Positions 326 through 62,433 are shown, numbered from the stretch's first letter. The stretch is DNA of 64,000 nt from Candidatus Nomurabacteria bacterium (GCA_023267215.1 JAHFNS010000002.1:256892-320891); one strand, 5' to 3'. Notes: generated by a model not told the origin, from the letters alone. Made by a program: numbers and translations.

Positions 326-2494
326 TTGGTGGGTAATAAAAATATGAATAAGAAAGAATTCAGTGTAGAAATTGGTGGTAAAACATTGACCGCTATTTTC
401 TCAGATTTAGCAGAACAAGCACATGGATCAGTCATGCTTAAATATGGTGACACTATAGTGCTAGCGACAGCTTGTATGTCCAAAGACAAGCAAGCAGGTT
501 TGGGATTTTTTAATCTGACAGTAGACTATGTAGAGAGATTTTATGCTGCTGGAAAGATTTTAGGTTCACGTTTTATGCACAGAGAAGGAAAGCCATCAGA
601 AGATGCTGTCCTTGCTAGTCGTGTTATAGACAGAACCTTGCGTCCACTTTTCGATCAATCTATTCGCCATGCTGTGCAAGTCATCACCACTGTCATATCT
701 ATGGGTGAGGATGACTCTACAATACTTGCAGTAAATGCTGCATCTTTGGCCCTCGCAGTATCAGACATACCATGGGCAGGGCCTATCGGCTGTGTGCGCA
801 TTGGGAAATACGATGACGATAATTTAAAAATAAATCCTGCGCAAATTTTAAGACAAGATGATTCTAAATATAAATACGATCTTACTATCTGTGGTAAAAA
901 TGGAAATATAAATATGATAGAAGCATCAGCTCATCAGACTAGTGAAGATGAACTCGAAGAAGCATTCAAAAAGGCAAGTGAAGAAATAACAAAACTTGAA
1001 GACTTCCAAAAGAAGATAGTTGCTGAGATAGGTGTCGCTAAGAAGGTAATAGAAAAAGAAAAAGTTAGCGATGGATCAGTAAAATTATTTAATGAAAACA
1101 TTTTACCAAAGATGGAAAGTGCACTATTCGCTGGTGCTGGCAAAAAACCCATAGATGAACTTCACAGTGTTTGGAATAAATTGGTGAAAGACACTTACCC
1201 TGACAGGACCGACTTTGCCCCCGAAGATGCTCTCTTTGACGATACAGAAAATGATATGTTGCACGAGAAAGCTATTCACGAAAACAAACGTGCAGACGGT
1301 AGGGCGATGGATGGACTTCGTGCTCTCTATGCACAAGCTGGAGGACTTTCTACAATATTGCATGGTTCTGGAATTTTCTATCGTGGAGGAACTCATGTCC
1401 TATCTGTTCTTACTCTAGGTGGACCAGAAGAGAAACTTTTAGTAGACGGAATGCAATCAAAAATTGAAAAAAGATTTATGCATCATTACAACTTTCCACC
1501 TTACTCAGGTGGAGAAGTAGGCCGTATGGGAAATACAAATCGCAGAGAAGTCGGACACGGAGCACTAGCTGAAAAAGCTTTAGCTATGATATTGCCAAGT
1601 GTCGAAGAATTCCCTTACACTATGCGTATAGTTTCTGAATCAATGGCATCAAATGGTTCTACTTCTCAAGCTTCTATCTGTGCTTCAAGTCTTGCCCTTA
1701 TGGACGGAGGTGTGCCTATAAAAGCACCAGTCGCTGGTATTGCTATGGGTCTCATGATGGAGATGACCTCACCCCAGCCCTCTCCTTATAAAGGAGAGGG
1801 GGAAATTCCAAAATATAAAATTTTGACTGATATCCAAGGACCCGAAGATCATCATGGAGATATGGATTTCAAGGTGGCAGGCACGAGAGATGGCGTCACA
1901 GCTATTCAGCTTGATGTGAAAGTGGAAGGAGTACCAATAAAAATATTAGGTGAAGCCATGAGACAATCCAAAGCCGCTAGACTTTCTATCTTAGATACTA
2001 TAGAAAAAGAAATTCCAAAATCTCGTTCCGAAATTTCTCCAAACGCTCCAAAGATATTGATTATGAAAATCAAACCAGACCAGATAGGTATGGTGATAGG
2101 CGGTGGTGGAAAAACCATTAAGGATATAAAAGAACGTTCAGGTGCAGAAATAACTATTGAAGATGATGGTACAGTATATTTGACAGGGAAAGATGATAAA
2201 GCAGAAAAAGCTAAAAAAATAATAGAAGAAATGACCCATGAGTACAAAGTTGGGGAAGTTTTGAAAGGAGAAGTCGTGAGAATTGCAGACTTTGGAGCTT
2301 TCGTCGCCTTAAATCCTTTTACTGATGGTATGGTGCACATTTCTGAGATGGCCCCATTTCGTGTAGAGCGAGTCATTGATATAATAAAGGATGGCATGAT
2401 AGTGCCAGTGAAGATAATAAAAGTGGACAGAGAACAAGGTAAAATCAGTTTGTCTATCAAAGAAGCCGATCCAAATTTCTTTAAGAAACCTTAG
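326..2494 (+). CDS. pnp: Polyribonucleotide nucleotidyltransferase (PNPase)
   Basis: 722 aa with two RNase PH-like cores (GDMDFKVAGT motif) and C-terminal KH plus S1 domains (GEVLKGEVVRIADFGAFV). An alternative start is at 344. Confidence 0.9.
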   Translation: MVGNKNMNKKEFSVEIGGKTLTAIFSDLAEQAHGSVMLKYGDTIVLATACMSKDKQAGLGFFNLTVDYVERFYAAGKILGSRFMHREGKPSEDAVLASRVIDRTLRPLFDQSIRHAVQVITTVISMGEDDSTILAVNAASLALAVSDIPWAGPIGCVRIGKYDDDNLKINPAQILRQDDSKYKYDLTICGKNGNINMIEASAHQTSEDELEEAFKKASEEITKLEDFQKKIVAEIGVAKKVIEKEKVSDGSVKLFNENILPKMESALFAGAGKKPIDELHSVWNKLVKDTYPDRTDFAPEDALFDDTENDMLHEKAIHENKRADGRAMDGLRALYAQAGGLSTILHGSGIFYRGGTHVLSVLTLGGPEEKLLVDGMQSKIEKRFMHHYNFPPYSGGEVGRMGNTNRREVGHGALAEKALAMILPSVEEFPYTMRIVSESMASNGSTSQASICASSLALMDGGVPIKAPVAGIAMGLMMEMTSPQPSPYKGEGEIPKYKILTDIQGPEDHHGDMDFKVAGTRDGVTAIQLDVKVEGVPIKILGEAMRQSKAARLSILDTIEKEIPKSRSEISPNAPKILIMKIKPDQIGMVIGGGGKTIKDIKERSGAEITIEDDGTVYLTGKDDKAEKAKKIIEEMTHEYKVGEVLKGEVVRIADFGAFVALNPFTDGMVHISEMAPFRVERVIDIIKDGMIVPVKIIKVDREQGKISLSIKEADPNFFKKP
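1767..1806 (+). repeat. Copy of the GC-rich REP-like element (CCTCACCCC..CCCTCTCCTTATAAAGGAGAGGG) embedded in-frame in pnp
   Basis: Near-identical to the intergenic copies at 13473-13546, 14893-14981 and 61691-61786. It encodes the extra TSPQPSPYKGEGEIPK segment just before the conserved LTDIxGxEDHxGDMDFK motif, at the position where E. coli PNPase has only KEGDNYVV. Confidence 0.6.
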
Positions 2495-5870: not shown

Positions 5871-6635
5871 ATGATAAAAAAAGAGCAACTTATTGACTTG
5901 GGGTTTGGAGACAAAGAAGCGAGTGTTTATTTGGCTTTACTTGAGCTTGGCCCTTCCACTACCACAGAAATATCAAGACGAGCAGGCATAAATCGCACGA
6001 CTGGATATGATATTTTGGAATCTTTAGCAAGTGATGGATTGATTAATCCAATTAGGGATACAAAAATTCAGAAATACTCAGCAGAAAACCCAGAGAAAGT
6101 CATTTCTTTTTTAGAAAATAAAATAAAACAGACTGAAGAAAAATTAAAACAGGCACATTTGTTGTTGCCAGAGCTTCTTTCTGTCTTTAATGTGAAAGAA
6201 AAACCAAAAGTTAAATTTTTTGAAGGAATTGAGAGAGTGAAAGAAGCATTTGAAGATACCTTAAATACAAAAAGAGAAATATTAGCTTATGCTGTCGGTG
6301 CTGACATGTTTGAAACTGTCGGGCGCGAATATTTTAAAGAATATACCAGAAAAAAGGTAGAAAAAAATATTCATGTTAAAGTAATTGCTCCAGATGATGA
6401 GGAAAGTAGGGAGGTTGTCTCTAGGGATGCTCTGGAATTAAGGGAATCTGTGCTTATACCAAAAGAAAAATTTTACTTTACAACAGAAATCAACATCTAC
6501 AACAATAAAATGATTATTATTTCTTGGAAAGAAAAATTTGCTGTGATTGTAGAAAGTGAAGAAATTGCCAACGCACAAAGAAGAGTTTTTGATCTCGCGT
6601 GGCTAGGGGCAAAACAGTTGTCAAATAGGAGTTAA
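5871..6635 (+). CDS. TrmB-family (winged-HTH) transcriptional regulator
   Basis: N-terminal HTH ASVYLALLELGPSTTTEISRRAGINRTTGYDILESL, typical of TrmB. Confidence 0.6.
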   Translation: MIKKEQLIDLGFGDKEASVYLALLELGPSTTTEISRRAGINRTTGYDILESLASDGLINPIRDTKIQKYSAENPEKVISFLENKIKQTEEKLKQAHLLLPELLSVFNVKEKPKVKFFEGIERVKEAFEDTLNTKREILAYAVGADMFETVGREYFKEYTRKKVEKNIHVKVIAPDDEESREVVSRDALELRESVLIPKEKFYFTTEINIYNNKMIIISWKEKFAVIVESEEIANAQRRVFDLAWLGAKQLSNRS

Positions 6636-6671
6636 TATTTTGGATTTTAGAAATTGTAGTATAATAAATTT

Positions 6672-7514
6672 ATGAAAACTGAAATAATAAAATCACTTGT
6701 AAATAATTTTGAATCCTATGCTCACAAAACTAATGAAGGGATAGAGTTTTGGTTAGCTAGAGATTTACAGCAACTTTTGGGTTATAGGAAATGGGATAAC
6801 TTTTTAACTGTTATTACTAAAGCAAAAACAGCTTGTGAAATAACGGGGCATAAAGTTACCGATCATTTTGCCGACGTCGGGAAAACGATCCAAATGCCCA
6901 AAGGGGCACAAAAAGAGATTCAAGATTTAATGCTTACTAGGTATGCTTGTTATCTTATTGCTCAGAATGGAGATTCTAGAAAAGAAGAAATTGCTTTTGC
7001 CCAAAATTATTTTGCTATTCAAGCTAGAAAGTTTGAAGTAATTGAGAAAAGAATACAAGAATTTGAAAGAGTTAGGGCTAGACATAAATTAATTGAAACA
7101 GAAAAAGAATTATCTAGTGTTATTTATCAACAAACAAAAAATGATAAAAATTTTGGATTAATTCGTAGTAAAGGAGATAAAGCCTTATTTGGATATACAA
7201 CTCAAGAAATGAAAAGTCGGCTAAAAGTTCCTAGCAGTCGTGCTCTAGCAGATTTTCAACCGACTATATTATTAAAAGCCAAAGACTTTGCTACAGAAAT
7301 AACCATTTTTAATACAAAAAATAAAGGATTAAAAACTGAACAGGCAATTTCAGAAGAGCATATTATAAACAACAGAAGTGTTCGGAAAACTTTAATTAGT
7401 CGTGGTATTCGTCCAGAAATTTTACCTGCCGAAGAAGATATAAAAAAAGTTGAAAGGAAAATTGAATCTGAAAATAAAAAAAGTTTAAAAAAACCAGACA
7501 AATTGAAAACCTAG
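6672..7514 (+). CDS. dinD: DNA-damage-inducible protein D-like (Bro-N domain)
   Basis: The N-terminal half aligns with E. coli DinD: FWLARDL..LGYRKWDNF..AKTACE.TGH...DHF...GAQKE..D..LTRYACYLIAQNGD...IAFAQNYFAIQ. Confidence 0.7.
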   Translation: MKTEIIKSLVNNFESYAHKTNEGIEFWLARDLQQLLGYRKWDNFLTVITKAKTACEITGHKVTDHFADVGKTIQMPKGAQKEIQDLMLTRYACYLIAQNGDSRKEEIAFAQNYFAIQARKFEVIEKRIQEFERVRARHKLIETEKELSSVIYQQTKNDKNFGLIRSKGDKALFGYTTQEMKSRLKVPSSRALADFQPTILLKAKDFATEITIFNTKNKGLKTEQAISEEHIINNRSVRKTLISRGIRPEILPAEEDIKKVERKIESENKKSLKKPDKLKT

Positions 7515-10551: not shown

Positions 10552-10568
10552 TTAATTTATATAAATCA

Positions 10569-10595
10569 AAAAATCCCCTAGAAGGGGATTTTTTG
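10569..10595. terminator. Bidirectional intrinsic terminator (AAATCCCC-TAGAA-GGGGATTT plus T-tract) between lexA and hup
   Basis: Perfect 8-bp GC-containing stem flanked by A and T runs on both sides. Confidence 0.6.
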
Positions 10596-12834: not shown

Positions 12835-13437
12835 CTAAGTTTTAATAGCAACAGAGGCTTTGGATTTCGTGACTATTTCGTCGATAATGCCATATTTTTT
12901 GGCTTCTTCTGCATCCATAAAGAAATCTCTTTCCACATCCTTTTCTATCTGTGCGAATAGCTTGCCTGTATTTTTAGCTAGAATTTTATTTAAATTGTCT
13001 CTTGTTTTTAGAATATGTTTTGCTGTGATGGCTATGTCTGTGGCTTGACCTTCTACTCCACCCAATGGTTGATGGATCATTATTTCAGCATTTGGCAAAA
13101 TGAATCTTTTACCTTTTTTACCAGCAGATAAGATAATGGCTGCGCCAGATGCTGCTATGCCGACACAAAAAGTGGAAATGTCTGGACGGACATGGTTCAT
13201 AGTGTCTACTATGGCGAGAGTGGAAGTGACAGAACCGCCAGGGGAATTTATGTAAAGCGAAATATCTTTCTTTGAATCTTCGGATTCTAGGAATAAAAGC
13301 TGTGCGATGACGATGTTTGCCACGTTGTCATCGATAGGTCCGGCTAAGAATACTATTCTTTCTCTTAAAAGACGGGAATATATATCATAAGCTCTTTCGC
13401 CGAACTGACTTTTTTCTATAACGGTTGGGATTAACAT
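12835..13437 (-). CDS. clpP: ATP-dependent Clp protease proteolytic subunit
   Basis: [11 protein letters not shown] and IMIHQPLGG Ser-His-Asp triad motifs. Confidence 0.9.
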
Positions 13438-13472: not shown

Positions 13473-13546
13473 ACCCCCTAAATCCCCCTTGTCAGGGGGC
13501 ATACCTCACCCCCTGACCCCCTCTCCTTATTAAGGAGAGGGGGAAT
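13473..13546. repeat. GC-rich multi-hairpin REP-like element (CCCCCTTGTCAGGGGG / CCTCACCCC / CCCCTCTCCTTATTAAGGAGAGGGGG)
   Basis: Three consecutive GC-rich palindromes in an otherwise AT-rich intergenic region. Same family as 1767-1806, 14893-14981 and 61691-61786. Confidence 0.65.
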
Positions 13547-13570
13547 ATGATATGATGAATTGTAAGATTT

Positions 13571-13789
13571 ATGAAAAATTTGAGCATTGTTCACAAAATA
13601 ATAGGAATAAGTTTCATAGTGGTGGGGTTAATCTCTTATGTCTTTCCAGTTCCGGGGAGTACTGTCCTCGTTGTATTGGGTTTTGTCTGGTTAATAGGCA
13701 AAGATAGGTCTTTGTATTTCTTGAAAGAAATTTTAGGTAAGAAAATATTCAAATTATTAAAAATAAAAAAGGTAGTAAAAGAAATATAA
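13571..13789 (+). CDS. Small hypothetical membrane protein
   Basis: ORF with one or two predicted TM helices; no motif. Confidence 0.3.
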   Translation: MKNLSIVHKIIGISFIVVGLISYVFPVPGSTVLVVLGFVWLIGKDRSLYFLKEILGKKIFKLLKIKKVVKEI

Positions 13790-13792
13790 AAT

Positions 13793-14173
13793 ATGTTTTT
13801 AAATATTATTTTAAATTTTTTTATTGGTTTGATTGTCGGTCTTGTTTTGGAATATATCTATAGATCTCACGAAAACAAAAGATTAGTAAAACCAAAATTA
13901 ATAGATGCACAAATGTATGCCCTGATAGGAGCATTTTTAGCTCTTCTTAGTTTTTTTGAAATGCCATTAGTCTATAAAGTAGTACTGATTTTTATAGTTC
14001 CGACATTAGTGGAATTTTTGACTGGTTATTTAGATTTGAAAATAAAGAAAGTCAGGTTGTGGAATTATTCTAAAGAGAAATTTAACTTTATGGGCTTGAT
14101 TTGCCTACGTTTTTCCTTATATTGGTTTCTGATTTCCTTAATTTACTACTACTATTTGATGCCTAGGTTTTGA
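13793..14173 (+). CDS. Small hypothetical membrane protein
   Basis: ORF with multiple hydrophobic helices; no motif. Confidence 0.3.
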   Translation: MFLNIILNFFIGLIVGLVLEYIYRSHENKRLVKPKLIDAQMYALIGAFLALLSFFEMPLVYKVVLIFIVPTLVEFLTGYLDLKIKKVRLWNYSKEKFNFMGLICLRFSLYWFLISLIYYYYLMPRF

Positions 14174-14841
14174 TCATCTTCCCGAGGGTTATCCTCGGGA
14201 AATTCACTAAAATCATCCACAATAGTGCTGTAATCAATAATGTTTGTTTCCTCAACCGGGAATAGTTTAGGATTTATGATTTTATAATCTGAAGAGAGAT
14301 ATTCTTGCAAGCTCGAATATGGATATTCAGAAATAAATTTTTTAAGTTGGTTTAAAAAACTTTTTGATTGAGTTTTCCAATTTGAATTTTTTAGTTTTGC
14401 TGGATTTAAATGGATATATGCATAAATATACCTTAAATATATATCATCATCTATATATTCTGATTTAAAAGTTCCTTGGAAAAGAGCACCTACTCTATCA
14501 TTTTTTTTATTAAAATACATAGAATAGCCAGTTTGAAGTTTAAGCATAAATTTTGAAACTCCTCCATCCACAAGGGGAGTAAGTAATAAATGAAAATGAT
14601 TTGGCATTAAACAATATGCTCCAATGGCCACGAGTTGTTCCCCTCGGTCCTGTTTGAAAATTTCTTCTATTGAGATAGAACCAAAATCTTTTATATGTAG
14701 AGGTTGGTCGTTGTTTGCGATATAAAGTAATATTAAAAATCTTTTATATTCAGAAGAATTTTGAAATATTTTTCGTTTCTCTACGCCACGATTGTAAATA
14801 TGGTAGAATTCTTCTACCTCAAGTTTTGTTTTTCGTTCCAT
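14152..14841 (-). CDS. IS200-like / REP-associated (RAYT) Y1 HUH transposase
   Basis: HUH motif (NHFHLLL) and catalytic Tyr motif (YIHLNPAK). The probable ATG is at 14841; the ORF track extends to a TTG at 14859. The C-terminal codons overlap the 14179-14201 palindrome. Confidence 0.7.
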   Translation of the reverse strand: MERKTKLEVEEFYHIYNRGVEKRKIFQNSSEYKRFLILLYIANNDQPLHIKDFGSISIEEIFKQDRGEQLVAIGAYCLMPNHFHLLLTPLVDGGVSKFMLKLQTGYSMYFNKKNDRVGALFQGTFKSEYIDDDIYLRYIYAYIHLNPAKLKNSNWKTQSKSFLNQLKKFISEYPYSSLQEYLSSDYKIINPKLFPVEETNIIDYSTIVDDFSEFPEDNPREDDQNLGIK

Positions 14842-14884
14842 ATAATAATTATAGCACAAAATTTCCCGAGGGTTATCCTCGGGG
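14179..14884 (-). mobile_element. RAYT/IS200-like unit bounded by two copies of the palindrome CCCGAGGGTTATCCTCGGG (14179-14201 and 14864-14884)
   Basis: Identical 19-bp palindromes sit at both ends of the transposase gene, which lies between the normally adjacent tig and clpP. Confidence 0.5.
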
Positions 14885-14892
14885 AGTTTAAT

Positions 14893-14981
14893 TGTCAGGG
14901 GGGGGATACCTCACCCCTAACCCCTCTCCTTAATAAGGAGAGGGGGAAAGTTTCTCTACTGAGAAACTGGGGTGAGGTGGA
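14893..14981. repeat. GC-rich multi-hairpin REP-like element
   Basis: TTGTCAGGGGGGGG..CCTCACCCC..CCCCTCTCCTTAATAAGGAGAGGGGG..GGGGTGAGG. Same family and orientation as 13473-13546. Confidence 0.65.
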
Positions 14982-16091
14982 TTAATTTTGATTTTCTAGA
15001 AATTGGAAAACAGCTTCATTTGTAAGCACATTTTCGGCATGCATTTGAGCTCTTTCAAGGTCTGCATCTTTATAATGTTCGAGTATAGCTGCAACTTCTT
15101 TGGCTACTTGTTCAGGATCTGCTGCTATTTTTTCATCTGCAGCTATTTTGTTTAAGACTAGCGCGAACTTGGCTTTTTTTTCTGCATCATTTCTAAATTC
15201 TTTTCTCAAATCTTCCACAGTTTTACTCAAATGTTTTAGATAATCTTCAAATTTTAAACCCATCTGAGTGATGTCGGATTCCATACGATATAAAATTTTA
15301 TCGAGTTCTACTTCAATTAAAATTTCTGGGAGCTCAACTTTCAAATCATCGATTATTTTTTCAACGATTTTCAATCTAGTTTTTTCTTTTAGTTGGTTTC
15401 CTTTTTCTAATTTTATATTTTCTTTTAGTTTTGTCTTGAAATCCTCTACGTTTTTGAAGGGCCCTAGAGCTTGGACGAATTCATCATTAAACTCTGGTAA
15501 TTCGGCTTCTTTTGGTTCTTCGTGCTTGTGTTCCTCACCTTCTTTATGTACGTGTTCAGCCTCGTCTCCACCCTTCGCTAAAGCTTCGGAGGACGTAGCT
15601 GCCATGTGAATTTTTGGAGCGCGGGATTTTCTAATGTCCATGATTGTGTCTTCAACTTCTTTTTCTGTCACTTCAGTATTTTTTTCTTTATCTGTTATTC
15701 CAGAAATTATTTTTTTAGCAATATTTTTATAATCCGGCAATGTCATTTCTGGAAGGGTGGCGGTTTTTATTTTAAATCCTAACGGATTCTTGCGGGCAAG
15801 TTTGGTGATAGAAATTTCTGGGCGACTGATTGCGTCAATTTTATTTTCTTCTAAAATCTTTGGATAATGTTCGGAAAGAGCCATTTCTGCCATCTCTCCT
15901 AATATTTGTGCTTCTGGAATTTTAGAAAGTAAAACACTCTCAGGGACTTTTCCCTTACGAAAACCATCTATTTCTAAATTCTCACCGATTCGTTTTAAAG
16001 CCTTGTTAAAATAGGTCTCAAAAACCTCTGCGTCAATTTCTCCTTCAATCTCCACCTCACTTTTTGGTAATTTGTTGATTTTTATTTGCAT
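14982..16091 (-). CDS. tig: Trigger factor (compact, 369 aa)
   Basis: The N-terminal ribosome-binding domain (GFRKGKVP) and overall profile resemble trigger factor, and it is the neighbour of clpP. Confidence 0.8.
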   Translation of the reverse strand: MQIKINKLPKSEVEIEGEIDAEVFETYFNKALKRIGENLEIDGFRKGKVPESVLLSKIPEAQILGEMAEMALSEHYPKILEENKIDAISRPEISITKLARKNPLGFKIKTATLPEMTLPDYKNIAKKIISGITDKEKNTEVTEKEVEDTIMDIRKSRAPKIHMAATSSEALAKGGDEAEHVHKEGEEHKHEEPKEAELPEFNDEFVQALGPFKNVEDFKTKLKENIKLEKGNQLKEKTRLKIVEKIIDDLKVELPEILIEVELDKILYRMESDITQMGLKFEDYLKHLSKTVEDLRKEFRNDAEKKAKFALVLNKIAADEKIAADPEQVAKEVAAILEHYKDADLERAQMHAENVLTNEAVFQFLENQN

Positions 16092-16130
16092 TTCTCTACT
16101 TTATACTAAAAGCCAATTTTTTTCAAATTA

Positions 16131-16162
16131 AAAACATCTACGCGACTAGCGTAGATGTTTTT
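16131..16162 (-). terminator. Intrinsic terminator hairpin CATCTACGC-GACTA-GCGTAGATG plus T-tract
   Basis: 9-bp perfect stem followed by TTTTT. It lies downstream of the 16175..16486 gene. Confidence 0.5.
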
Positions 16163-18957: not shown

Positions 18958-18983
18958 AAAATTAAATATAAATAAGCAAATTA

Positions 18984-19010
18984 AAAAATCCCCGAAATTC
19001 GGGGATTTTT
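18984..19010. terminator. Bidirectional intrinsic terminator (AAAAATCCCCGAA..TTCGGGGATTTTTT) shared by hppA and nusA
   Basis: GC stem flanked by A and T runs. Confidence 0.6.
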
Positions 19011-19025
19011 TAATTAAATATTTTT

Positions 19026-21053: not shown

Positions 21054-21953
21054 ATGCCAAAGTTTAGACCTAAAATATCACGTTATGCAAATTTGTATTT
21101 TTTCATTCAAAATTTATCTGAATGGCATTTCTCAAATCGTAAAAAACATAATAAAGAATGGCGTAATGAGTTAGCTTTTTCTGAAAAGGTTGAACTTTGT
21201 TTACAAGAATTTAAAGAGATACATAAAAAATATTCATTTGGTGATGAATATCTTGGACGACCATTTTTTCTTTACGATAATCCATGGTCTATGATAAAAA
21301 CAATTGTTGGCGAAGATGATTATGTTAAAATAAAAAATATTTTTTCAACACTTGAGCCATATTTTAATACTCTTTATATAAAGGATGAAATAATTTTAAA
21401 AAAGTGGGCGATACTCATTTCAGAACCAGAATTTTTGGAAAAGGCTTCTTTTATAAATGAAACCCTTGCGAGTTTTTATGGATGTTCTCTATATAATGAA
21501 GATTGTACAATATATCTATTATTATCTACAAAAGAAAAAAATGGTGGAACATCGGGAACTATAAATGATCATTCTGTCACTCTTGAATTGAGCCAGATAT
21601 CTCTGGAATCAAAAGGACAAGTACTCAAAGTATTATGGCATGAATTGATTCATCTATATTTTAGAAATAACACATTTTATCCTCTTTTGGAAAAGTATAC
21701 AGATAACAACTTAGAAGCTATGGGTAAAATTGACGAGCTCATCGCCTCTTCACTTCTTCCGAATGGTTTATTAAAAGAAAATACAATAACCTTGGTTAAT
21801 GAATCAAAAACCCCTGAAACTTTTAACGCTCGCATTATCTCAGATAAGATTATATTCATTCAAAAATTAATTTATCCATATTTGAAAGAAAAAAGGACTG
21901 TTGATGCGAAACTTGTAGAAAAACTTTGTGTGATATATGGTTACAATAAATAA
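21054..21953 (+). CDS. Hypothetical protein with an HExxH motif (possible metallopeptidase)
   Basis: WHELIHLYF; no other recognisable domain. Confidence 0.35.
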   Translation: MPKFRPKISRYANLYFFIQNLSEWHFSNRKKHNKEWRNELAFSEKVELCLQEFKEIHKKYSFGDEYLGRPFFLYDNPWSMIKTIVGEDDYVKIKNIFSTLEPYFNTLYIKDEIILKKWAILISEPEFLEKASFINETLASFYGCSLYNEDCTIYLLLSTKEKNGGTSGTINDHSVTLELSQISLESKGQVLKVLWHELIHLYFRNNTFYPLLEKYTDNNLEAMGKIDELIASSLLPNGLLKENTITLVNESKTPETFNARIISDKIIFIQKLIYPYLKEKRTVDAKLVEKLCVIYGYNK

Positions 21954-23524: not shown

Positions 23525-23911
23525 TTATGGGAGAAATTCTTTTATTTTAAAAGCTATATCTTTAAATTCATTTTCTGAAATATTTTCTATTTTTCGAAGT
23601 AAGCGTTTTGCACTTATTAATCTTATTTGAGAAAGAATCACAAAACTCCCACTAGTTTTTAGTTTATGATGGTATAAATTATTTTTTATCACAGAAGTTA
23701 GAGGTACTATTACAGCGATATCTCTATTGAATTTTTTTAAAATTAAAACTGGTCTTTCAAAATTCTCATTTTTCCCATCTTGTTCATATCCAATATTTAC
23801 ACCTAAAGAACACCACCAGATTTCTCGTTCGTGAAAATAGAATTTTTTTGGTTTCTCTAAAGAATTTGTATTCTTTTTTATTTCGTTCCACTTATCAAAA
23901 TCTTTTTGCAT
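23525..23911 (-). CDS. PemK/MazF-like toxin-fold protein; no cognate antitoxin ORF seen
   Basis: REIWWCSLGVNIGYEQDGKNENFERPVLIL resembles the MazF/PemK signature (IWWVDLGP..G.EQ.G.RP.LVIS). Confidence 0.5.
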   Translation of the reverse strand: MQKDFDKWNEIKKNTNSLEKPKKFYFHEREIWWCSLGVNIGYEQDGKNENFERPVLILKKFNRDIAVIVPLTSVIKNNLYHHKLKTSGSFVILSQIRLISAKRLLRKIENISENEFKDIAFKIKEFLP

Positions 23912-24104
23912 ATAAAAATTATATCATAATTTAAATAAATTTTTCCCCATAAATTAGTAAGAGCCGTCATATGATAAATCACAGACGGCTCTATTTTACT
24001 ACCTCAGAACTTACACACATTTTTTATTCCAAAAAAAATTTTAAAAAATTATTAACTAAAAAACAAATTTTTTTATCCTAACAAGACATCTTGCTAGTCT
24101 GTTG

Positions 24105-25028
24105 CTATTTAATCAGCAACATTTTTTTGGTTTCTACTACTACAGATCCTGCTTGGAGTCTGTAGAGGTACATTCCACTTGGTAAATTTGAAGCATTAAA
24201 TGCAACTTCATAATTACCAATTGGTTTGAATTCGTTAACTAATGTTGCAATTTCTTTTCCCAACATATCGTACACCTTAAGTGATACGAATTGCGAGTTA
24301 GGAACAGAAAATTGAATCTTTGTTGCAGGGTTGAATGGGTTAGGATAATTCTGTGACAATTCAAATTTGGAAGGGATATTATTTCCTTCAATTTTTGTTA
24401 TCGACATATTATCAATCACAGTTTTTTTGCCCAAAGAGATGATACTTAAATCATCAAAATCGATTGCGTACATTACATACGTACCTGTTTCAAGGGATAT
24501 ACCCCAAACTTCAATGTAAACTTTATTGAAATTTGGCAATCTCTTTTTGGTGTCCGTCATGTCAATTTTAATCTCCTGCCATTCATTACCTACAGCAGGA
24601 TTTTTGATTGTGATTTGACAGTACGGAGATGAAACATAATGATTGTTGTATTGCAAAGCTATTCTGATCGTTAACTCAGATAGCCCACTTGCACCAGATA
24701 TCCTAGAGAGGAAACTAACAAAATCTGGTGTTTCAAGGTATCCTCCATTTAAACTGAATGTGGATGCCTTAGAAAAATCTTTCGGGTAATTATTTTGTAT
24801 GGAACTTTCGTTCCCTTTTAATGTGGTTTTTCCCTCTCCCACAAATGTTACAAAACCACTACCCAAGACAGACTTTGTGATAAATACGGGGTTTCCGTAA
24901 ATATCATACTCATTCGAGAAACTTCCCCAGCCATTCGCATCAGCTGGGTCAACTCTAATGGTTTGCTGAGCTGTTACCAACCCAACAAAAATTAAAACTA
25001 AAAACAGTGTGTTAAGTAACGTTTTCAT
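24105..25028 (-). CDS. Secreted protein with a T9SS-type C-terminal sorting domain (Por_Secre_tail-like)
   Basis: Signal peptide MKTLLNTLFLVLIFVGLVTAQ. The C-terminus LSQNYPNPFNPATKIQFSVP..LKVYDMLGKEIATLVNE..SGMYLYRLQAG matches the TIGR04183-type CTD pattern. Confidence 0.7.
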   Translation of the reverse strand: MKTLLNTLFLVLIFVGLVTAQQTIRVDPADANGWGSFSNEYDIYGNPVFITKSVLGSGFVTFVGEGKTTLKGNESSIQNNYPKDFSKASTFSLNGGYLETPDFVSFLSRISGASGLSELTIRIALQYNNHYVSSPYCQITIKNPAVGNEWQEIKIDMTDTKKRLPNFNKVYIEVWGISLETGTYVMYAIDFDDLSIISLGKKTVIDNMSITKIEGNNIPSKFELSQNYPNPFNPATKIQFSVPNSQFVSLKVYDMLGKEIATLVNEFKPIGNYEVAFNASNLPSGMYLYRLQAGSVVVETKKMLLIK

Positions 25029-25215
25029 AACGCTCCTTTTATTTTTTTTATAAATTAAATTGATTACAAAAAAACGGAATATTTTTTCTGTACTTTTGTA
25101 ACCAATTTAAATGTTTGTCAAAGAAATTCTCTATTAATTAGAGAACATATTTAAACCTATGTAAAGCATAGCATAGTTTGGGGCTTTTGTCAATGTCAAG
25201 GAGGTTAAATTCATT
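24965..25215. repeat. ~250-bp duplicated block (promoter region plus 5' coding region for the signal peptide), paralogous to 27032-27270
   Basis: Near-identical nucleotide sequence in both copies. It includes a candidate minus-strand promoter, TTGACA (25193..25188), 17-nt spacer, TATGCT (25170..25165). Confidence 0.65.
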
Positions 25216-25273
25216 AAAAACCCTTATATTTTGGTGAGTTATCCACAAGATTTTTTTAAATACATTTTTAAAC

Positions 25274-25350
25274 TTGACTTTTTGGATATGACTAGAGTAT
25301 AATATGAGGACTAAACGTGAAGGGCATCCTATATGGGTGCCTTTTTCTTT
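25274..25350 (+). promoter_or_regulatory. Orphan promoter (TTGACT-N18-TATAAT, 25274-25303) followed ~20 nt later by an intrinsic terminator (25322-25347); a possible very short ncRNA
   Basis: Near-consensus hexamers, then the hairpin GGGCATCC-TATAT-GGGTGCC plus TTTTT. There is no downstream plus-strand ORF. Confidence 0.3.
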
Positions 25351-25367
25351 TAGAGATATTGTTTATT

Positions 25368-26000
25368 TTATTTCATTTTTAATAATTCTCTTAAATATTC
25401 AAAATCTCTAAAATTGCTTCCAGCAAATTGTTTTATTTCTTTTGCTGTTCGTTCACTTCTACTTAATATGATTATTTCTTTTTTATTTTCCTTCAAATAT
25501 TTTAATACAGGTAAAAAATCTCCATCCCCAGACAAAATAATAGCTTTATCAAAATTATCTTTTTCTTTCATTAAATGAAATGCCATATCAACATCACAAT
25601 TTGCTTTTCGTTTTGTTGTACCATCTTCCTGCTCATACATTTTTATTGGTTTTAAATATAAAGAGTATCCAAATTTTAGAAGTTTTAGATAAAAACGTAT
25701 TCTTTGTAAATGTTTACCAATAAGAAATATTTGAGCTTCATTTAAATGTTTAGTTTTGTCTTTTATTAAACTTACTAAATAAGTTTCCAATTTATTTATT
25801 GGAACTGTCTCTTCTTTTTGATAATCATATTGGAAATTATATATTTCAACTCCTCCAAAATAAAAAATAGGACCTACATTATATTTATTTTTTAAATAAT
25901 TAAATAATTTTTCATAATCAATTTTCCAACCAAGAGATTTTTCTCCACCATAAAAAAGATTTGAGGCGTCAATAAAAGCAAAATTATTTTTTCTTTCCAT
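25368..26000 (-). CDS. NYN/LabA-like (DUF88) domain protein
   Basis: FIDASNLFYGG N-terminal motif and AIILSGDGDFLP motif. Confidence 0.6.
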   Translation of the reverse strand: MERKNNFAFIDASNLFYGGEKSLGWKIDYEKLFNYLKNKYNVGPIFYFGGVEIYNFQYDYQKEETVPINKLETYLVSLIKDKTKHLNEAQIFLIGKHLQRIRFYLKLLKFGYSLYLKPIKMYEQEDGTTKRKANCDVDMAFHLMKEKDNFDKAIILSGDGDFLPVLKYLKENKKEIIILSRSERTAKEIKQFAGSNFRDFEYLRELLKMK

Positions 26001-26180
26001 TGATATATTTTATCATAATTTAAATAAAATACCCCTTAAATTAAAAAGAACCTGATGATTAAAAAAAATCATCAGGCTCAAATTATTACTTCAGAACTTA
26101 AAACCATTTTAAAACTCCGAGATTACTCAAAATGAACAATTAATTTTTATTCTAATCAGAATCATCTGGCTAGTCTGTTG

Positions 26181-27095
26181 TTATTTTACTAACGACATTT
26201 TTTTTGTTTGCATAAAGTTACCTGCTTGTAACCTATAGAAATAAGTACCGCTTGATAACTTAAGTTTGCCGGCATCGAATGTTGCTTCGTAAATTCCAGC
26301 AGGTTTTTGCTCGTTGTCAACGAGTGTTGCTACTTCTCTACCTTGTAAATCGTAGACCTTTAATGTAACAGGTCCAGACTCAATTGGTACGAAGTATTGA
26401 ATCTTTGTTGCAGGGTTGAATGGGTTAGGATAATTCTGTGACAATTCAAATTTGAAAGGGATATTATTCCCTTCAATTTTGGTGATCTGAAAATTATCAT
26501 AGACAATCTCATTCCCGAGACTATCTACTCCAATTAAATTTCTTATGTCTATACTTGCTCCGACATATGAAATTTCAGAAGACATGACCCAAAATAAGAA
26601 AGTCATGGAATAGAAATTTTTTATTCTATTTGTCACAGCATCTGTTGGAAGCTTTATTTTCTTCCATCCATCTACCACTGGATTTGTTTCATTCACACTT
26701 ACAGTTTTATTGTAAATAGAATACCCGTCACCAGTAATTTCAAGACCAATAGCAATTTCTGATACATTTCCAACTAATCCAGAAACTCGATAATCAAATC
26801 CGACGTATTTTTGGATTTTTTTAGTTTCAGTTGCAGAAAAAAATCTTTTTTTATAATTGGTCATTAGATATACTTGTCCATTTAAATATGTATTACCAAA
26901 TGTATTGAATGTTTGGTAACCACTTTTAATTTGTGAGTATGTTTTTGAAGCATCATACAACAAGTTACCATGGATATCGTAACCTGGTAGACACTCCCAA
27001 CCATTTACAGCAGTTGCATCTGTTACTTTTGTCTGAGCTGTTACCAACCCAACAAAAATTAAAACTAAAAACAGTGTGTTAAGTAACGTTTTCAT
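26181..27095 (-). CDS. Secreted protein with a T9SS-type C-terminal sorting domain; paralogue of 24105..25028
   Basis: Identical signal peptide. C-terminus LSQNYPNPFNPATKIQYFVP..LKVYDLQGREVATLV..SGTYFYRLQAG. Confidence 0.7.
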   Translation of the reverse strand: MKTLLNTLFLVLIFVGLVTAQTKVTDATAVNGWECLPGYDIHGNLLYDASKTYSQIKSGYQTFNTFGNTYLNGQVYLMTNYKKRFFSATETKKIQKYVGFDYRVSGLVGNVSEIAIGLEITGDGYSIYNKTVSVNETNPVVDGWKKIKLPTDAVTNRIKNFYSMTFLFWVMSSEISYVGASIDIRNLIGVDSLGNEIVYDNFQITKIEGNNIPFKFELSQNYPNPFNPATKIQYFVPIESGPVTLKVYDLQGREVATLVDNEQKPAGIYEATFDAGKLKLSSGTYFYRLQAGNFMQTKKMSLVK

Positions 27096-27359
27096 AACGC
27101 TCCTTTTATTTTTTTTATAAATTAAATTGATTACAAAAAAACGGAATATTTTTTCTGTACTTTTGTAACCAATTTAATTGTTTGTCAAAGAAATTCTCTA
27201 TTAATTAGAGAACATATTTAAACCTATGTAAAGCATAGCATAGTTTGGGGCTTTTGTCAATGTCAAGGAAGCTAAAATGCCAAAAAAGCTAGTATTTACG
27301 TGGACTTATCCACAGAATTTTCCCCAATTTGCCTTGTTTAATGTATAATTAAAGAATTA

Positions 27360-30300
27360 TTGGTGTATTTTAAATATAAATTTATATCTATGTATAAAAA
27401 ATTTTTGAATATTGGAGTTGTAGTATTGGTAGTTTTGACAATTGGTATAAGTTTTCTTTTTATATCTAATGTACTAGCCTCAGGTCAAAATCCTCCGACT
27501 TTAACGCTTTCTGCAAATCCATCGACAGTAGAATATGGAGATTCGACTACTATAACTTGGTCAACGACATATGCAGATAATTGTACCGCTTTTGAAAGTT
27601 GGTCAGGATCGAAAGCAGTTTCTGGGTCGCAGAATATTGGCAACATAACATCAAGTGGGGTTTATCGACTTACATGCACTGGGTCTGGAGGTAGTGTCAC
27701 AAAGGATGCTTATATTAATATTGCAGCTTCGCCTAAATGTGGCTGTTATTCTAGTTTAGTAAATAGTGCAAATGCTGTAGGGTTGCCTTATTGCAGTGTG
27801 TATAATGACAATAACTATTGTCGTGCTGAAGTTGCTGGGGGTGGTTGGGGGTATTGTAATTGGCAGCCAATGTATGATGAATACTTTTCGTACTGTCCTA
27901 CATTAGGAGTTAGTGCCACCCCCGTCTCTATTTTTACTAATTCAACAGGAACATCTACTTTGACTATCTCAAGTAGTGATATTTCTGGAAATATAACTTA
28001 TTCTGTAAATAAACCAGATGGTCTTACAAATACATCTGTAAAAAATGGTTTTACAAATAAATCTGCTGAAATTGAAATTATTGCAGGGTCTACTGCCGGA
28101 ACTTACACTGTGACCGTGACAGCAAGTGGAACTGGCACTAATGGGAATTCTATTTCTACGTCAAAAGATATTCTCGTGACCGTGACGGCTGCCCCTACAC
28201 CTACTTTAACCCTTACAGCAACTCCAATTTCACTCCCTATTAATTCAACAAAAACAGGGAATATAATTGGTGTGACTGCGAGTAATATTTCGGGAAATAT
28301 AAATCTTTTTAAAACTCTTCCAAATAATATTTCTGATGTAGCTATACCTGATTCAATTCCTTCTACTTCTCTCTCTACTTCTTACAGCGTTACAGCTGGA
28401 CCTAATGCTACTACTTCAGGAAATCCTGCATTAGTAACAATATCCGCAAGCGCAGTTGGGACAGATGGAAGTACAGTTACTAAATCTATAGATGTCCCTG
28501 TCACTGTGACTGCCGCCGCTGTTCCTGATCCTTCTGGAACTATTTCTGTAGCTCCGACTTCTTGTGTCATAGCAATTGGCGCATCTACTTGTCCTACGTA
28601 TGTAAGTTGGGGAACTTATGATTTAATTGATGGTGTCACCGCAGAAGTGACAAGAAATAATCCACCCAACACTCATGTTTCTTATGCTCCAAATAGAAGT
28701 TCATATTTTCATAATATTAATTATGGAAAAACTATTTTCTTTCTCTACCATAATGGAGTAGAGTTGGCTAAAAGTGAAGAAATCACTGCTTCTTGTGCTA
28801 GTGGTTCCACTTGGAACAATACTATATGTGCAACTAATACAACTGTTCCCACTGTCGTTACTTCTGGAGCTATAAGTGTAACATCAACTTCTGCAACAAT
28901 TGGTGGAAATGTTACTTCAGATGGAGGTTCAGCTATTATTTCTCGAGGAACTATTATTGGTCAACAGCAGCCCACTTCAGATGTCCCCAAAACTGCAGAA
29001 GGTGGTACAACAACTGGTCATTTTAATCAAAATAAAACAAATTTAACTCCAGAAACCTCCTATTATTACAAAGCCTATGCCGTAAATAGTGTTGGTACAG
29101 CTTATGGTGATGATGTATTGTTTACAACTAGTGCTAAACTTTTATCTGACCTTGTTGCTTCAGCACCTACTTCAACCACAGCAGTTGTCGGAGTCGCTCA
29201 AACATTTTCTTCAACCATTCTAAACTCAGGCACTGCTTCAACTGGGGCTAGTTTTTATAATGCATTTCAAATAGCTGATGATGTAAGTGGAGTAGATCCA
29301 AGATCGCCTGAATCTTCATCTTCGATGTCAGCACTTGCTGTAAATGGAACGGGTGTTGCTTCTGCCTCGCATACATTTGATACCGCTAGAACATATTCTG
29401 TTAGATTTTGTGCAGATAGTAACACTAGCTTTGTCGGAACCATCACTGAATCAAATGAAAATAACAACTGTAGTGCTTGGACAGACGTAGTGGTGAGCGA
29501 TGCTCCAACAGCTCCTACTTGTACTTCTCCAACTTCGACTAATATTACTCAGACTTCTGCTGTTATAGGGGGAAACATAACTTCAAGTGGTGGTTCTGCT
29601 ATTAACTCTCGAGGAACTATTCTTAGTTTAGCTGATGCGAATATTCCTAAAACTGCAGAAGGTGGTACAACAACTGGTGTCTTCACTCAAAGTAAAACAA
29701 GTTTAACTCCAGGGACCACTTATCACTACAAAGCTTATGCCACGAATGCTATTGGCACAGGGTATTGTCCTGATTCCACCTTTACGACTTTGCCTCCGGA
29801 TTCCTGCGGTGCTGGCAGTAGTTCTACTCCACAACTTACTGAACCAACAGGAACAAATGCTTGTACAACTGGAATATATGCAAACTCTCCAGCCGACACC
29901 ACAACTGCCGGATCGCAAGCATGGAATTGGTCTTGCGGAACAGTGACGACATGTTCTGCTCCTAAATATGGATGTACAACAGTTACAGATACTAATTACA
30001 ATGCGACTGGTCCAAATAATATTTATAATTGTGCTCTCACTTGTGCGAATGGTGCAACTAATTATCCGACTTGTTCAACACATACGATTACTTTTGATGG
30101 CAATGGTTCCACTGGTGGTTCTACTGCTAGTCAAACAATTCCAGAAGGAAATTCTGTTAATTTAAGAGCCAATGGTTTTACTAAAACTGGTTATTCATTT
30201 GCTGGTTGGGCAACCACTTCAACTGGAGTTGTTTCTTATATTGATCAAGCAAGTTATAGTATGGGAAGTGGAGATGTAACTCTTTATGCAAAATGGAATC

Positions 30301-32135: not shown

Positions 32136-32161
32136 AATAAAAAATAAGATATAAAATACCA

Positions 32162-32187
32162 AAAATTCCCCAGTAGGGGAATTTTTG
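32162..32187 (+). terminator. Intrinsic terminator AAAAATTCCCC-AGTA-GGGGAATTTTT after the giant gene; it overlaps the extended -10 (TGGTATAAT, 32187-32195) of tpiA
   Basis: Perfect stem plus T-tract. The -10 element lies 6 nt upstream of the tpiA ATG, suggesting a leaderless tpiA mRNA. Confidence 0.5.
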
Positions 32188-32200
32188 GTATAATTGACTT

Positions 32201-61424: not shown

Positions 61425-61468
61425 CCCTAAGCTGGGCATAGGGGATTCCCCTATGCCCAGCTTAGGGG
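61425..61468. repeat. Near-perfect 44-bp palindrome CCCTAAGCTGGGCATAGGGGA|TTCCCCTATGCCCAGCTTAGGG, CCCAGCTTAGGGG family
   Basis: It lies between ssb and rpsR. Same core as the elements at 2500-2545 and 4283-4325. Confidence 0.6.
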
Positions 61469-61681: not shown

Positions 61682-61690
61682 AAAACACAA

Positions 61691-61786
61691 AACCCCTCCC
61701 AACCTCCCCTTGTCAGAGGAGGAATTCACCTCTCCCCAGCCCCTCTCCTTCTCAAGGAGAGGGGTAAAGGGGTGAGGTAGGGGGTT
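61691..61786. repeat. GC-rich multi-hairpin REP-like element
   Basis: CCCCTTGTCAGAGGAGG..CACCTCTCCCCAGCCCCTCTCCTTCTCAAGGAGAGGGG..GGGGTGAGG. Same family as 13473-13546. Confidence 0.6.
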
Positions 61787-61809
61787 GTATTAAAATTAAT
61801 TTTTTAAAT

Positions 61810-62382: not shown

Positions 62383-62390
62383 ACCAATAA

Positions 62391-62422
62391 AAAAGCATCT
62401 ACGCTATAGCGTAGATGCTTTT
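62391..62422. terminator. Bidirectional intrinsic terminator AAAAGCATCTACGC-TATA-GCGTAGATGCTTTT between efp and recA
   Basis: 14-bp perfect stem with A and T flanks. It shares the CATCTACGC stem with the 16131-16162 terminator. Confidence 0.6.
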
Positions 62423-62433
62423 TTATTTTCTTT

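Follow-up and report, generated by a model that had tools for sequence, protein, structure and literature searches.

A RAYT-class transposase gene bracketed by two copies of a 19-nt hairpin in the tig-clpP spacer of a Candidatus Nomurabacteria bacterium

Most work on domesticated transposases of the REP-associated tyrosine transposase (RAYT) type, in which REP stands for repetitive extragenic palindrome, has been done in Proteobacteria and Cyanobacteria. Here we describe a locus of this type in a 64,000-nt, AT-rich stretch of a Candidatus Nomurabacteria genome (JAHFNS010000002.1:256892-320891, hereafter the window), in which a Y1 HUH transposase gene and two identical 19-nt hairpins lie between the genes tig and clpP. 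All coordinates are positions in the whole window, and L-numbers such as L001 denote the relatives' loci or contigs that were compared with it.

In the published classification, class 2 of the TnpAY1 proteins is defined by the tyrosine motif Y---NP, as opposed to Y---Q in IS200, and its subclass 2.1 carries the signature NH[YF]H, FQ, Y[IV]HLNP, and SS in a protein of about 238 aa (Quentin et al., 2018, Table 1; PMC6006769). This subclass is equivalent to RAYT Group 1 (Bertels et al., 2017; PMC5581495), and most of it corresponds to the TIRYT genes, or TIRtrons, whose flanking repeats may reach into the ends of the gene and need not belong to a dispersed family (Di Nocera et al., 2013; PMC3733652). 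For the REPtron arrangement, Quentin et al. (2018) cite Ton-Hoang (2012) and Messing (2012). An arrangement like the one described here, including overlap with the end of the gene and the lack of a dispersed family, is already known. Patescibacteria do not occur in Quentin et al. (2018), and none of the ten top-ranked papers of our literature search joined a RAYT term with terms for Patescibacteria or the candidate phyla radiation.

We consider it quite likely that the locus is a REPtron/TIRtron-type unit, composed of a vertically inherited, single-copy RAYT-class gene and its two cognate hairpins, and that the GC-rich repeats found in the same spacer are separate from it. The gene (14152-14841, minus strand) encodes 229 aa from its ATG, and an alternative TTG start at 14859 gives a 235-aa open reading frame (ORF). 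The protein matched the Pfam family Y1_Tnp (PF01797) at 35.1 bits, with a cut-off of 23. Its motif set comprises N81-H-F-H84, F121-Q122, Y142-IHLNP, and S176-S177 (PYSS tail), with the HUH motif NHFH (H82, H84) at 14590-14598 and the catalytic Tyr142 of the tyrosine motif YIHLNP at 14416-14418. The residues H82, H84, and Y142-x-H144-L-N146(-P) were invariant across 100 homologs. The RayT model NF047646 was the only NCBIfam match of the window protein (41.6 bits) and was matched by all 32 of the aligned relatives (best E = 2.9e-13), two of which also matched the IS200 model NF033573.

Searches of the PDB sequences with the single protein and with the 32-sequence profile gave no matches at E <= 10. 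An AlphaFold2 (AF2) model from 32 sequences reached a pLDDT of 55.8 and was not used; it was replaced by a model from a 100-sequence alignment (pLDDT 86.2, pTM 0.85), in which five short helices lie beyond residue 160. The top solved structure returned by Foldseek for this model was 4ER8_A, the E. coli TnpA-REP protein with a REP hairpin (E = 6e-5). The matches 4ER8, 2A6O, 2VJV, 2F4F, and 2XM3 had probabilities of 0.98-1.00, and the TnpA proteins of IS608, IS200, and ISDra2 ranked below 4ER8. An hhalign comparison with E. coli RayT (from MG1655) gave E = 1.7e-4 and a profile identity of 28% over 121 columns, pairing HUH with HMH, FQG with WQP, YIHLNP with YIYINP, and YPYSS with WPFST (window protein first). 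The gene is of the RAYT class and not of the IS200 class. Its motifs and length fit TnpAY1 subclass 2.1, and on this sequence basis the protein may be described as subclass-2.1-like. The sequence-only reading, made earlier from this DNA, had proposed a RAYT-type Y1 HUH protein. Its proposal was borne out by the comparison of RAYT with IS200/IS605 profiles and by the fold, and its reservation that the HUH and tyrosine motifs might be missing on proper alignment did not hold.

The palindrome CCCGAGGGTTATCCTCGGG (also CCCGAGGATAACCCTCGGG) occurs exactly twice in the 64 kb, at 14181-14199 and 14865-14883 and in the same orientation, with an expectation of zero from shuffled sequences. No third copy was present in the window, even when three mismatches were allowed. 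The two copies delimit a unit of 703 bp (14181-14883). The 5′ hairpin, CCCGAGG-gttat-CCTCGGG (14865-14883), is an exact repeat of the 3′ hairpin (14179-14201, core 14181-14199), whose arms and loop are TTCCCGAGG-gttat-CCTCGGGAA and which folds as DNA with -10.2 kcal/mol (z = -4.7). The 3′ hairpin lies within the final codons of the Y1 gene, where the protein reads ...FPEDNPRED..., and 6 nt past the stop codon of a convergent CmpB-like ORF. Identical palindromes bounding the transposase had been described in the sequence-only reading; the pair is indeed exact, but the copy at 14181-14199 is inside the last 17 codons of the ORF and not outside it.

The hairpins were compared at 80 relatives' loci from species-representative genomes, all Patescibacteria, and at the loci of close homologs. 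The 120 nt before the start codon were searched for words shared with the 120 nt around the stop codon, a test that does not presuppose hairpins. The longest shared word had a median length of 19 nt, and in 66 of 83 relatives it was 15 nt or longer; for control ORFs of 150-350 aa from the same loci the median was 8 nt, and only 8 of 517 had a word of 15 nt or more. At nearly all loci, a short, GC-rich, perfect hairpin was present upstream, ending at a median distance of 25 nt from the ATG, and a second copy followed from about the stop codon. The two hairpins were identical inside one locus and different from locus to locus, with examples such as TGAGCAAGG-ggagt-CCTTGCTCA, TACAAGGT-tca-ACCTTGTA, and ATACGGAGGC-aat-GCCTCCGTAT. 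Paralogs from the same genome also carried distinct hairpins (L013 versus L087, and the two genes of L061; one paralog hairpin is TACAAGGTTCAACCTTGTA). Among 56 paired loci, 49 had a 5′ arm ending with RGG(N0-2) before the loop. As defined by the loop, the two copies were inverted relative to each other at 30 loci and in direct orientation at 20 as well as in the window. At L014, L020, L082, and L038, the upstream site is an inverted hairpin doublet or an array with three to four copies, and these resemble the REPIN/REP clusters beside RAYT genes. Since almost every relative shows this co-variation of the 19-nt hairpin with the gene, the hairpin is the predicted partner of the enzyme.

The order tig, Y1 gene, clpP with the same hairpin was found in L001, L002, L089/L090, L127, L132, and L137/L139. 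Among these Y1 orthologs, the synonymous divergence (dS) is 0.5-1.1 and the ratio of nonsynonymous to synonymous divergence (dN/dS) 0.05-0.15, and the genes of L002, L089, L127, and L132 are 85-92% identical to that of the window. Despite this divergence, the hairpin pair is identical in the orthologs L001, L002, L089, L127, and L132, L089 being one loop base off. The unchanged hairpins, together with the low dN/dS, argue that the gene and the hairpins are under selection and have been inherited vertically for a long time. The arrangement is kept in at least six related genomes at this dS, so that it is not a recent insertion. The window holds a single Y1 gene; paralogs from one genome do not exceed 78% identity and have saturated dS, and some genomes have three Y1 paralogs in different contexts.

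Empty tig-clpP sites were found in L091 (18-nt gap), in a P0145 contig (142 nt), and in L017 (~190 nt), and the Tig proteins of these empty-site relatives are 76-82% identical. Since the empty sites occur at similar Tig divergence, the occupied state is derived and the gap is an insertion islet, in agreement with the earlier view that an ancestral adjacency of tig and clpP had been interrupted. The contents of the gap vary in close relatives (a CmpB-like gene with a 72-aa ORF; a DUF805 gene; 223/226-aa genes; a 299-aa gene), with a constant backbone. In L093, a paralog with 40% identity occupies the same gap on the opposite strand, and each of its ends has the hairpin CACTTGGACATCGGATGTCCAAGTG, which differs from that of the window. 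A third cognate hairpin was observed at L093:6645-6668, in frame inside the Y1 gene (6472-7107, minus strand), where it encodes ...NKLGHPMSKLS... between the Y and SS motifs. REP insertions within tnpA-REP genes have been reported for subclass 2.4 only (PMC6006769).

Beyond the flanking pairs, 52 loci with a total of 760 kb contained 18 extra copies of the locus-specific hairpin, 10 of which lay in the next intergenic gap and bounded one unrelated gene. Such a bracketed single gene, with the hairpin one gene away, is seen at L001:3973-4998 and also at L009, L010, L011, L030, L032, L042, L046, and L080. The bracketed 299-aa gene of L001 is missing from the orthologous loci of L127 and L002 and from that of the window. 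A 299-aa gene elsewhere in the window (21054-21953) was considered as its counterpart because of the equal length and was rejected, as the two are unrelated (E = 7.7) and the length is a chance match. In L018, the seeming dispersal is in part a cluster of four related hairpins within a single 630-bp spacer 7 kb away, which could be a decayed copy of the gene.

A metagenome scan with the exact 19-mer returned the orthologous islets and one solo copy on a related low-GC contig (L129:2724). This solo hairpin has A5/T4 tracts (L129:2716-2750, AAAAATCCCGAGGATAACCCTCGGGATTTT) and has a 215-aa gene on one side and a toxin-antitoxin-like pair on the other, with no Y1 gene within the 8.5-kb stretch. 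Twelve further metagenome stretches matching the hairpin (GC 0.47-0.67) had none of the four islet genes and were treated as unrelated, and a scan of viral contigs for the 19-nt hairpin gave no matches. The 18 extra copies and the solo copy in L129 indicate that spread of the hairpin exists, yet it is rare and mostly local. A dispersed, multi-copy REP/REPIN family of the cognate palindrome was found neither in the window, nor in the 760 kb of loci, nor in the metagenome scan. The sequence-only reading had held that conservation across the lineage with no repeat copies elsewhere would speak against it. For the palindrome, the conservation was found and the window has no other copy, but the solo copy on the related contig is an exception. 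The same reading had expected the system to be unusual in an AT-rich reduced genome, which is not the case, as the family is very common in Patescibacteria. Clustered at 90%, it comprises more than 7,600 proteins; at 50% identity and E <= 1e-30 there are 278 clusters, and at least 571 confirmed members were present among the 600 pattern matches listed from species-representative genomes.

A TAnnnT box, often with an upstream TG, was located between the hairpin and the ATG in 33 of 35 genes, 3-12 nt (median 6) before the start, and a Shine-Dalgarno-like motif was found in none of the 35 relatives with a refined start codon. In the window, the extended -10 box TGTGCTATAAT (14848-14858, minus strand, read from the sequence) ends 6 nt upstream of the Y1 ATG, and the -35 position of this promoter falls on the 5′ hairpin, which lies about 25 nt upstream. 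This suggests that the Y1 gene family may be expressed from leaderless mRNAs, with the -35 region on the hairpin. The 5′ hairpin was also scored as terminator-like on the minus strand in a terminator scan, downstream of tig, and the same hairpin in L002 has A5/T5 tracts and directly follows tig. From its position, its terminator-like score, and the A/T tracts in L002, the 5′ hairpin probably ends tig transcription.

By analogy with E. coli TnpA-REP and its REP, the protein would bind the hairpin extruded from single-stranded DNA. Cleavage and rejoining could take place near the foot of the hairpin via Tyr142 and a metal bound by the HUH motif, as with E. coli TnpA-REP and IS608, and this activity may homogenise the flanking hairpin copies and now and then seed a new copy nearby. 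The ancestor of the lineage would have acquired the unit in the tig-clpP spacer, which would then have turned into a small islet of variable content, with the GC-rich family arriving beside the unit independently. Since the 5′ hairpin overlaps the -35 region of the gene's own promoter, autoregulation is conceivable.

Among the closest described systems is E. coli TnpA-REP/RayT (YafM, PDB 4ER8), with which the window protein shares the Y1 HUH fold as its top structural match. Both have HUH, Y..NP, and the P-F/Y-S-S/T tail, and both genes are single-copy, vertically inherited, and bracketed by their own hairpin. Unlike the E. coli REPtron, the window locus has no GT[AG]G foot and no high-copy population of dispersed REPs, and one of its hairpins overlaps the end of the coding sequence. 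The window protein is longer (229 versus 165 aa), adding an N-terminal YHxYNRG segment and a longer tail. Its likeness to subclass 2.1 extends from the motif signature and the length of ~238 aa to the low copy number and the diverged paralogs within the same genome. However, subclass 2.1 has been described as having no REP-like structure near its genes (PMC6006769), whereas hairpins flank ~80-90% of the genes in the Patescibacteria relatives. The terminal inverted repeat motif GGGGWSAS of the TIRtrons was not seen at the Patescibacteria loci. With the IS200/IS605 family (IS200, IS608, ISDra2), the locus shares the catalytic fold, hairpins at both ends, and a unit of ~0.7 kb; it differs in having Y..NP in place of Y...Q, no identical copies, a position conserved across species, and hairpins that are often inverted. 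A further shared trait is a hairpin upstream of the promoter, which could block read-in transcription, as is described for IS200.

Several observations weigh against a REPtron/TIRtron-type unit. The hairpins lack the GT[AG]G foot of canonical REPs: their flanks in the window are ...AAACTC|CCCGAGG and ...GAATTT|CCCGAGG, and no GTAG is conserved across the loci. The score of 41.6 bits falls short of the equivalog cut-off of the NCBIfam RayT model (80), and the distal helix-turn-helix domain of subclass 2.1 (Bac_DnaA_C, HTH_23, HTH_28) was not detected by Pfam at E <= 0.01. The hairpin is no dispersed high-copy family, with no extra copy in the 64 kb, so the activity that gave the RAYTs their name is barely visible here. 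The mixed orientation of the pairs (30 inverted, 20 direct) means that no single strand-specific mechanism suits all loci. Finally, the binding and cutting of the hairpin by the Y1 protein is predicted by analogy, and the putative roles in termination and autoregulation are read from the position of the hairpin.

Of the two GC-rich palindromic elements of the spacer, copy A (13474-13545) lies directly upstream of the -35 hexamer of clpP, and copy B (14892-14980) is wedged between the stop codon of tig and the 5′ hairpin. The presence of two REP-like elements in the same orientation, as given in the sequence-only reading, was confirmed. The two copies are 79% alike and strongly folded as single strands in comparison with shuffles (copy A, z = -6.1; copy B, z = -6.5 and -29.7 kcal/mol), with an outer stem ACCTCACCCC/GGGGTGAGGT around two hairpins in copy B. 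The core CCCTCTCCTTANTAAGGAGAGGG occurs four times in the window (1778, 13519, 14922, and 61741; shuffles expect none), and within the window the GC-rich family has four copies and the hairpin just the two flanking ones. The copies outside the spacer are a fragment of ~40 nt (1766-1804), in frame inside pnp (326-2494, plus strand), and a full-length element between rpsR and efp (61682-61788; fold z = -4.65). The full form of ~105 nt (61682-61788; L001:6100-6215) has terminal inverted repeats CAACCCCCT...AGGGGGTTG, the same outer stem, and the core hairpin. Copy A is a truncated ortholog of the longer copy at L001:6100-6215, with no counterpart in L002 and L089, and copy B is absent at the orthologous position in L001, L002, L089, L127, and L132. 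The pnp fragment encodes ...TSPQPSPYKGEGE... / ...MTSPQPSPYKGEGE... and replaces a variable loop of PNPase with the frame kept (EMTSPQPSPYKGEGEIP in the window versus EPITNDQLRITNE-P in L129); L129, L061, and L075 have different, shorter sequences there.

An Rfam search of the whole window at gathering thresholds, and of the gap at E <= 1, returned nothing meaningful, and the structured GC-rich elements thus match no described RNA family. The core and tail motif was found in 29 IMG/VR stretches with a GC content of 33-60%, in many cases just past a stop codon and before a T-rich run. One of the IMG/VR contigs, L095 (7.3 kb, 45% GC), contains five copies of ACCTCACCCC-N3-CCCCTCTCCTT-NNN-AAGGAGAGGGG, and the motif class reaches well past the lineage of the window. 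The GC-rich elements are similar to Rickettsia palindromic elements in being short, GC-rich, palindromic, and dispersed, with one in-frame copy that falls in a surface loop of PNPase, a housekeeping protein. Intragenic REPs, to which the same likeness extends, are listed by Di Nocera et al. (2013; PMC3733652). The GC-rich elements differ from both in belonging to another sequence family and in having no assigned transposase. We conclude that they form an independent, lineage-specific family resembling miniature inverted-repeat transposable elements and are very unlikely to be the substrate of this enzyme.

Under the reading proposed from the sequence alone, the locus would be a classic REP/RAYT arrangement, with the GC-rich elements as the REPs or REPINs mobilised by the enzyme. 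In its favor, the gap contains two of the window's four GC-rich copies, one at a distance of 8 nt from the 5′ hairpin; the family is both dispersed and strongly structured, and one copy is intragenic, like some REPs. However, the orthologous loci L002, L089, L127, and L132, in which the gene is 85-92% identical and the hairpins are the same, are without GC-rich elements, and ~1.2 Mb of other Y1-family loci hold merely two copies. The 29 IMG/VR stretches with the core and tail motif lack the gene altogether, and the stem polarity of the elements (CCTT-loop-AAGG) is opposite to the RGG-loop-CCY polarity of 49 of the 56 cognate hairpins. We therefore regard a role of the GC-rich elements as cognate REPs as very unlikely. 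A purely transcriptional explanation, by which the hairpins would be terminators of tig and of the Y1 gene and unrelated to the enzyme, is more improbable still. It accommodates the terminator-like score of the 5′ hairpin, the A and T tracts of the hairpin in L002 and of its solo copy in L129, which resemble a bidirectional terminator, and the placement of the 3′ hairpin between convergent genes. But the ordinary terminators of the window are A-tract/stem/T-tract hairpins that are each individual in sequence, most copies of the hairpin have no T tracts, and independent terminators would not match within each of ~66 loci yet differ between loci.

An autonomous IS200-like insertion sequence, in which a unit of ~700 bp transposes as single-stranded DNA via left-end and right-end hairpins, is also unlikely, although a number of features agree with it. 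IS200 measures ~0.7 kb, near the 703 bp of the unit. The protein has the Y1 HUH fold, both hairpins of the window are in one orientation, and empty tig-clpP sites are known; L093 has a 40%-identical paralog in the same gap in reversed orientation, and three paralogs in different contexts exist in some genomes. Against such an element stand the tyrosine motif Y...NP in place of the Y...Q of IS200, a protein of 229 aa and not a minimal TnpA of ~150 aa, and the match to the IS200 model in only two of 32 relatives. No near-identical copies were found, with one gene in the window and same-genome paralogs at or below 78% identity with saturated dS, and the orthologs have kept their position across a dS of 0.5-1.1, with strong purifying selection. 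In addition, the hairpins are inverted in 30 of 50 orientable loci, which agrees poorly with same-strand processing of left and right ends. Rather doubtful, too, is an HUH-based gene-cassette site, at which single genes beside the Y1 gene would be added or removed by the enzyme at its hairpin, in loose analogy with the attC cassettes of integrons. Consistent with it, the same backbone (H+-PPase...tig | clpP-rny-HU) encloses at least six different gap contents in close relatives, the extra hairpin bounds one unrelated neighbor in 10 of 52 loci, and L001 has the order tig-hairpin-[299-aa gene]-hairpin-transposase-hairpin versus tig-hairpin-transposase-hairpin in L127. However, the extra gene in L089 and L132 has no hairpin on the tig side. 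If such a site existed, it would be the sole variable spot in an otherwise rigid Patescibacteria backbone.

For the favored REPtron/TIRtron-type unit, the comparison reveals that Patescibacteria host a large, uniform clade of RAYT-type genes, in which the system is found at a minimum of one gene and two hairpins, with nearly no dispersed repeats, in strongly streamlined genomes. Its retention under purifying selection in such genomes argues for a function of the unit beyond the spreading of repeats. The many natural protein/hairpin pairs of the clade may be used to work out the rules of recognition. For annotation, caution is advisable, since a GC-rich repeat beside a RAYT gene need not be its REP.

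The islet is bordered on the left by tig (14982-16091, minus strand; Trigger_N 4.6e-31, Trigger_C 3e-25) and on the right by clpP (12835-13437, minus strand; Pfam PF00574, 1.4e-81). Upstream of clpP lies a promoter-like sequence, TTGAAA-17-TATAAT (13472-13444). The tig-clpP spacer measures 1544 bp, and the sequence-only reading was correct both in placing ~1.5 kb between these minus-strand neighbors and in naming its contents, as the two GC-rich elements, two membrane ORFs, the Y1 HUH gene, and the palindromes are all present. The cargo of the islet consists of a small membrane ORF of 72 aa (13571-13789, plus strand), which gave no match in a family and profile search, and a CmpB-like membrane protein of 126 aa (13793-14173, plus strand; PF06541, 2.6e-22). 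In L002, L089, and L132, too, the 72-aa ORF neighbors the CmpB-like gene. A DUF805 gene takes the place of the CmpB-like gene in L001 and L127, and L132 has both genes.

Other repeats and structures were observed in the window. Ordinary bidirectional terminators of the A-tract/stem/T-tract type lie at 10567-10595, 16130-16162, 18979-19015, 32156-32191, and 62386-62427. Between ssb and rpsR (61425-61467), there is a perfect palindrome with a 20-bp stem, CCCTAAGCTGGGCATAGGGG-att-CCCCTATGCCCAGCTTAGGG, which is unrelated to the other two families. A tandem duplication with a period of ~2.07 kb (23900-27320) comprises two paralogous genes (24105-25028 and 26181-27095, minus strand) with their upstream regions, and its repeat copies (families D2, D5, D9, D10, and D14) are 78-93% alike. 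At 27360-32135 (plus strand), a 1591-aa ORF contains internal direct repeats of 288 nt (97%), 233 nt (95%), and 149 nt (76%) and probably encodes a repeat-domain surface protein.

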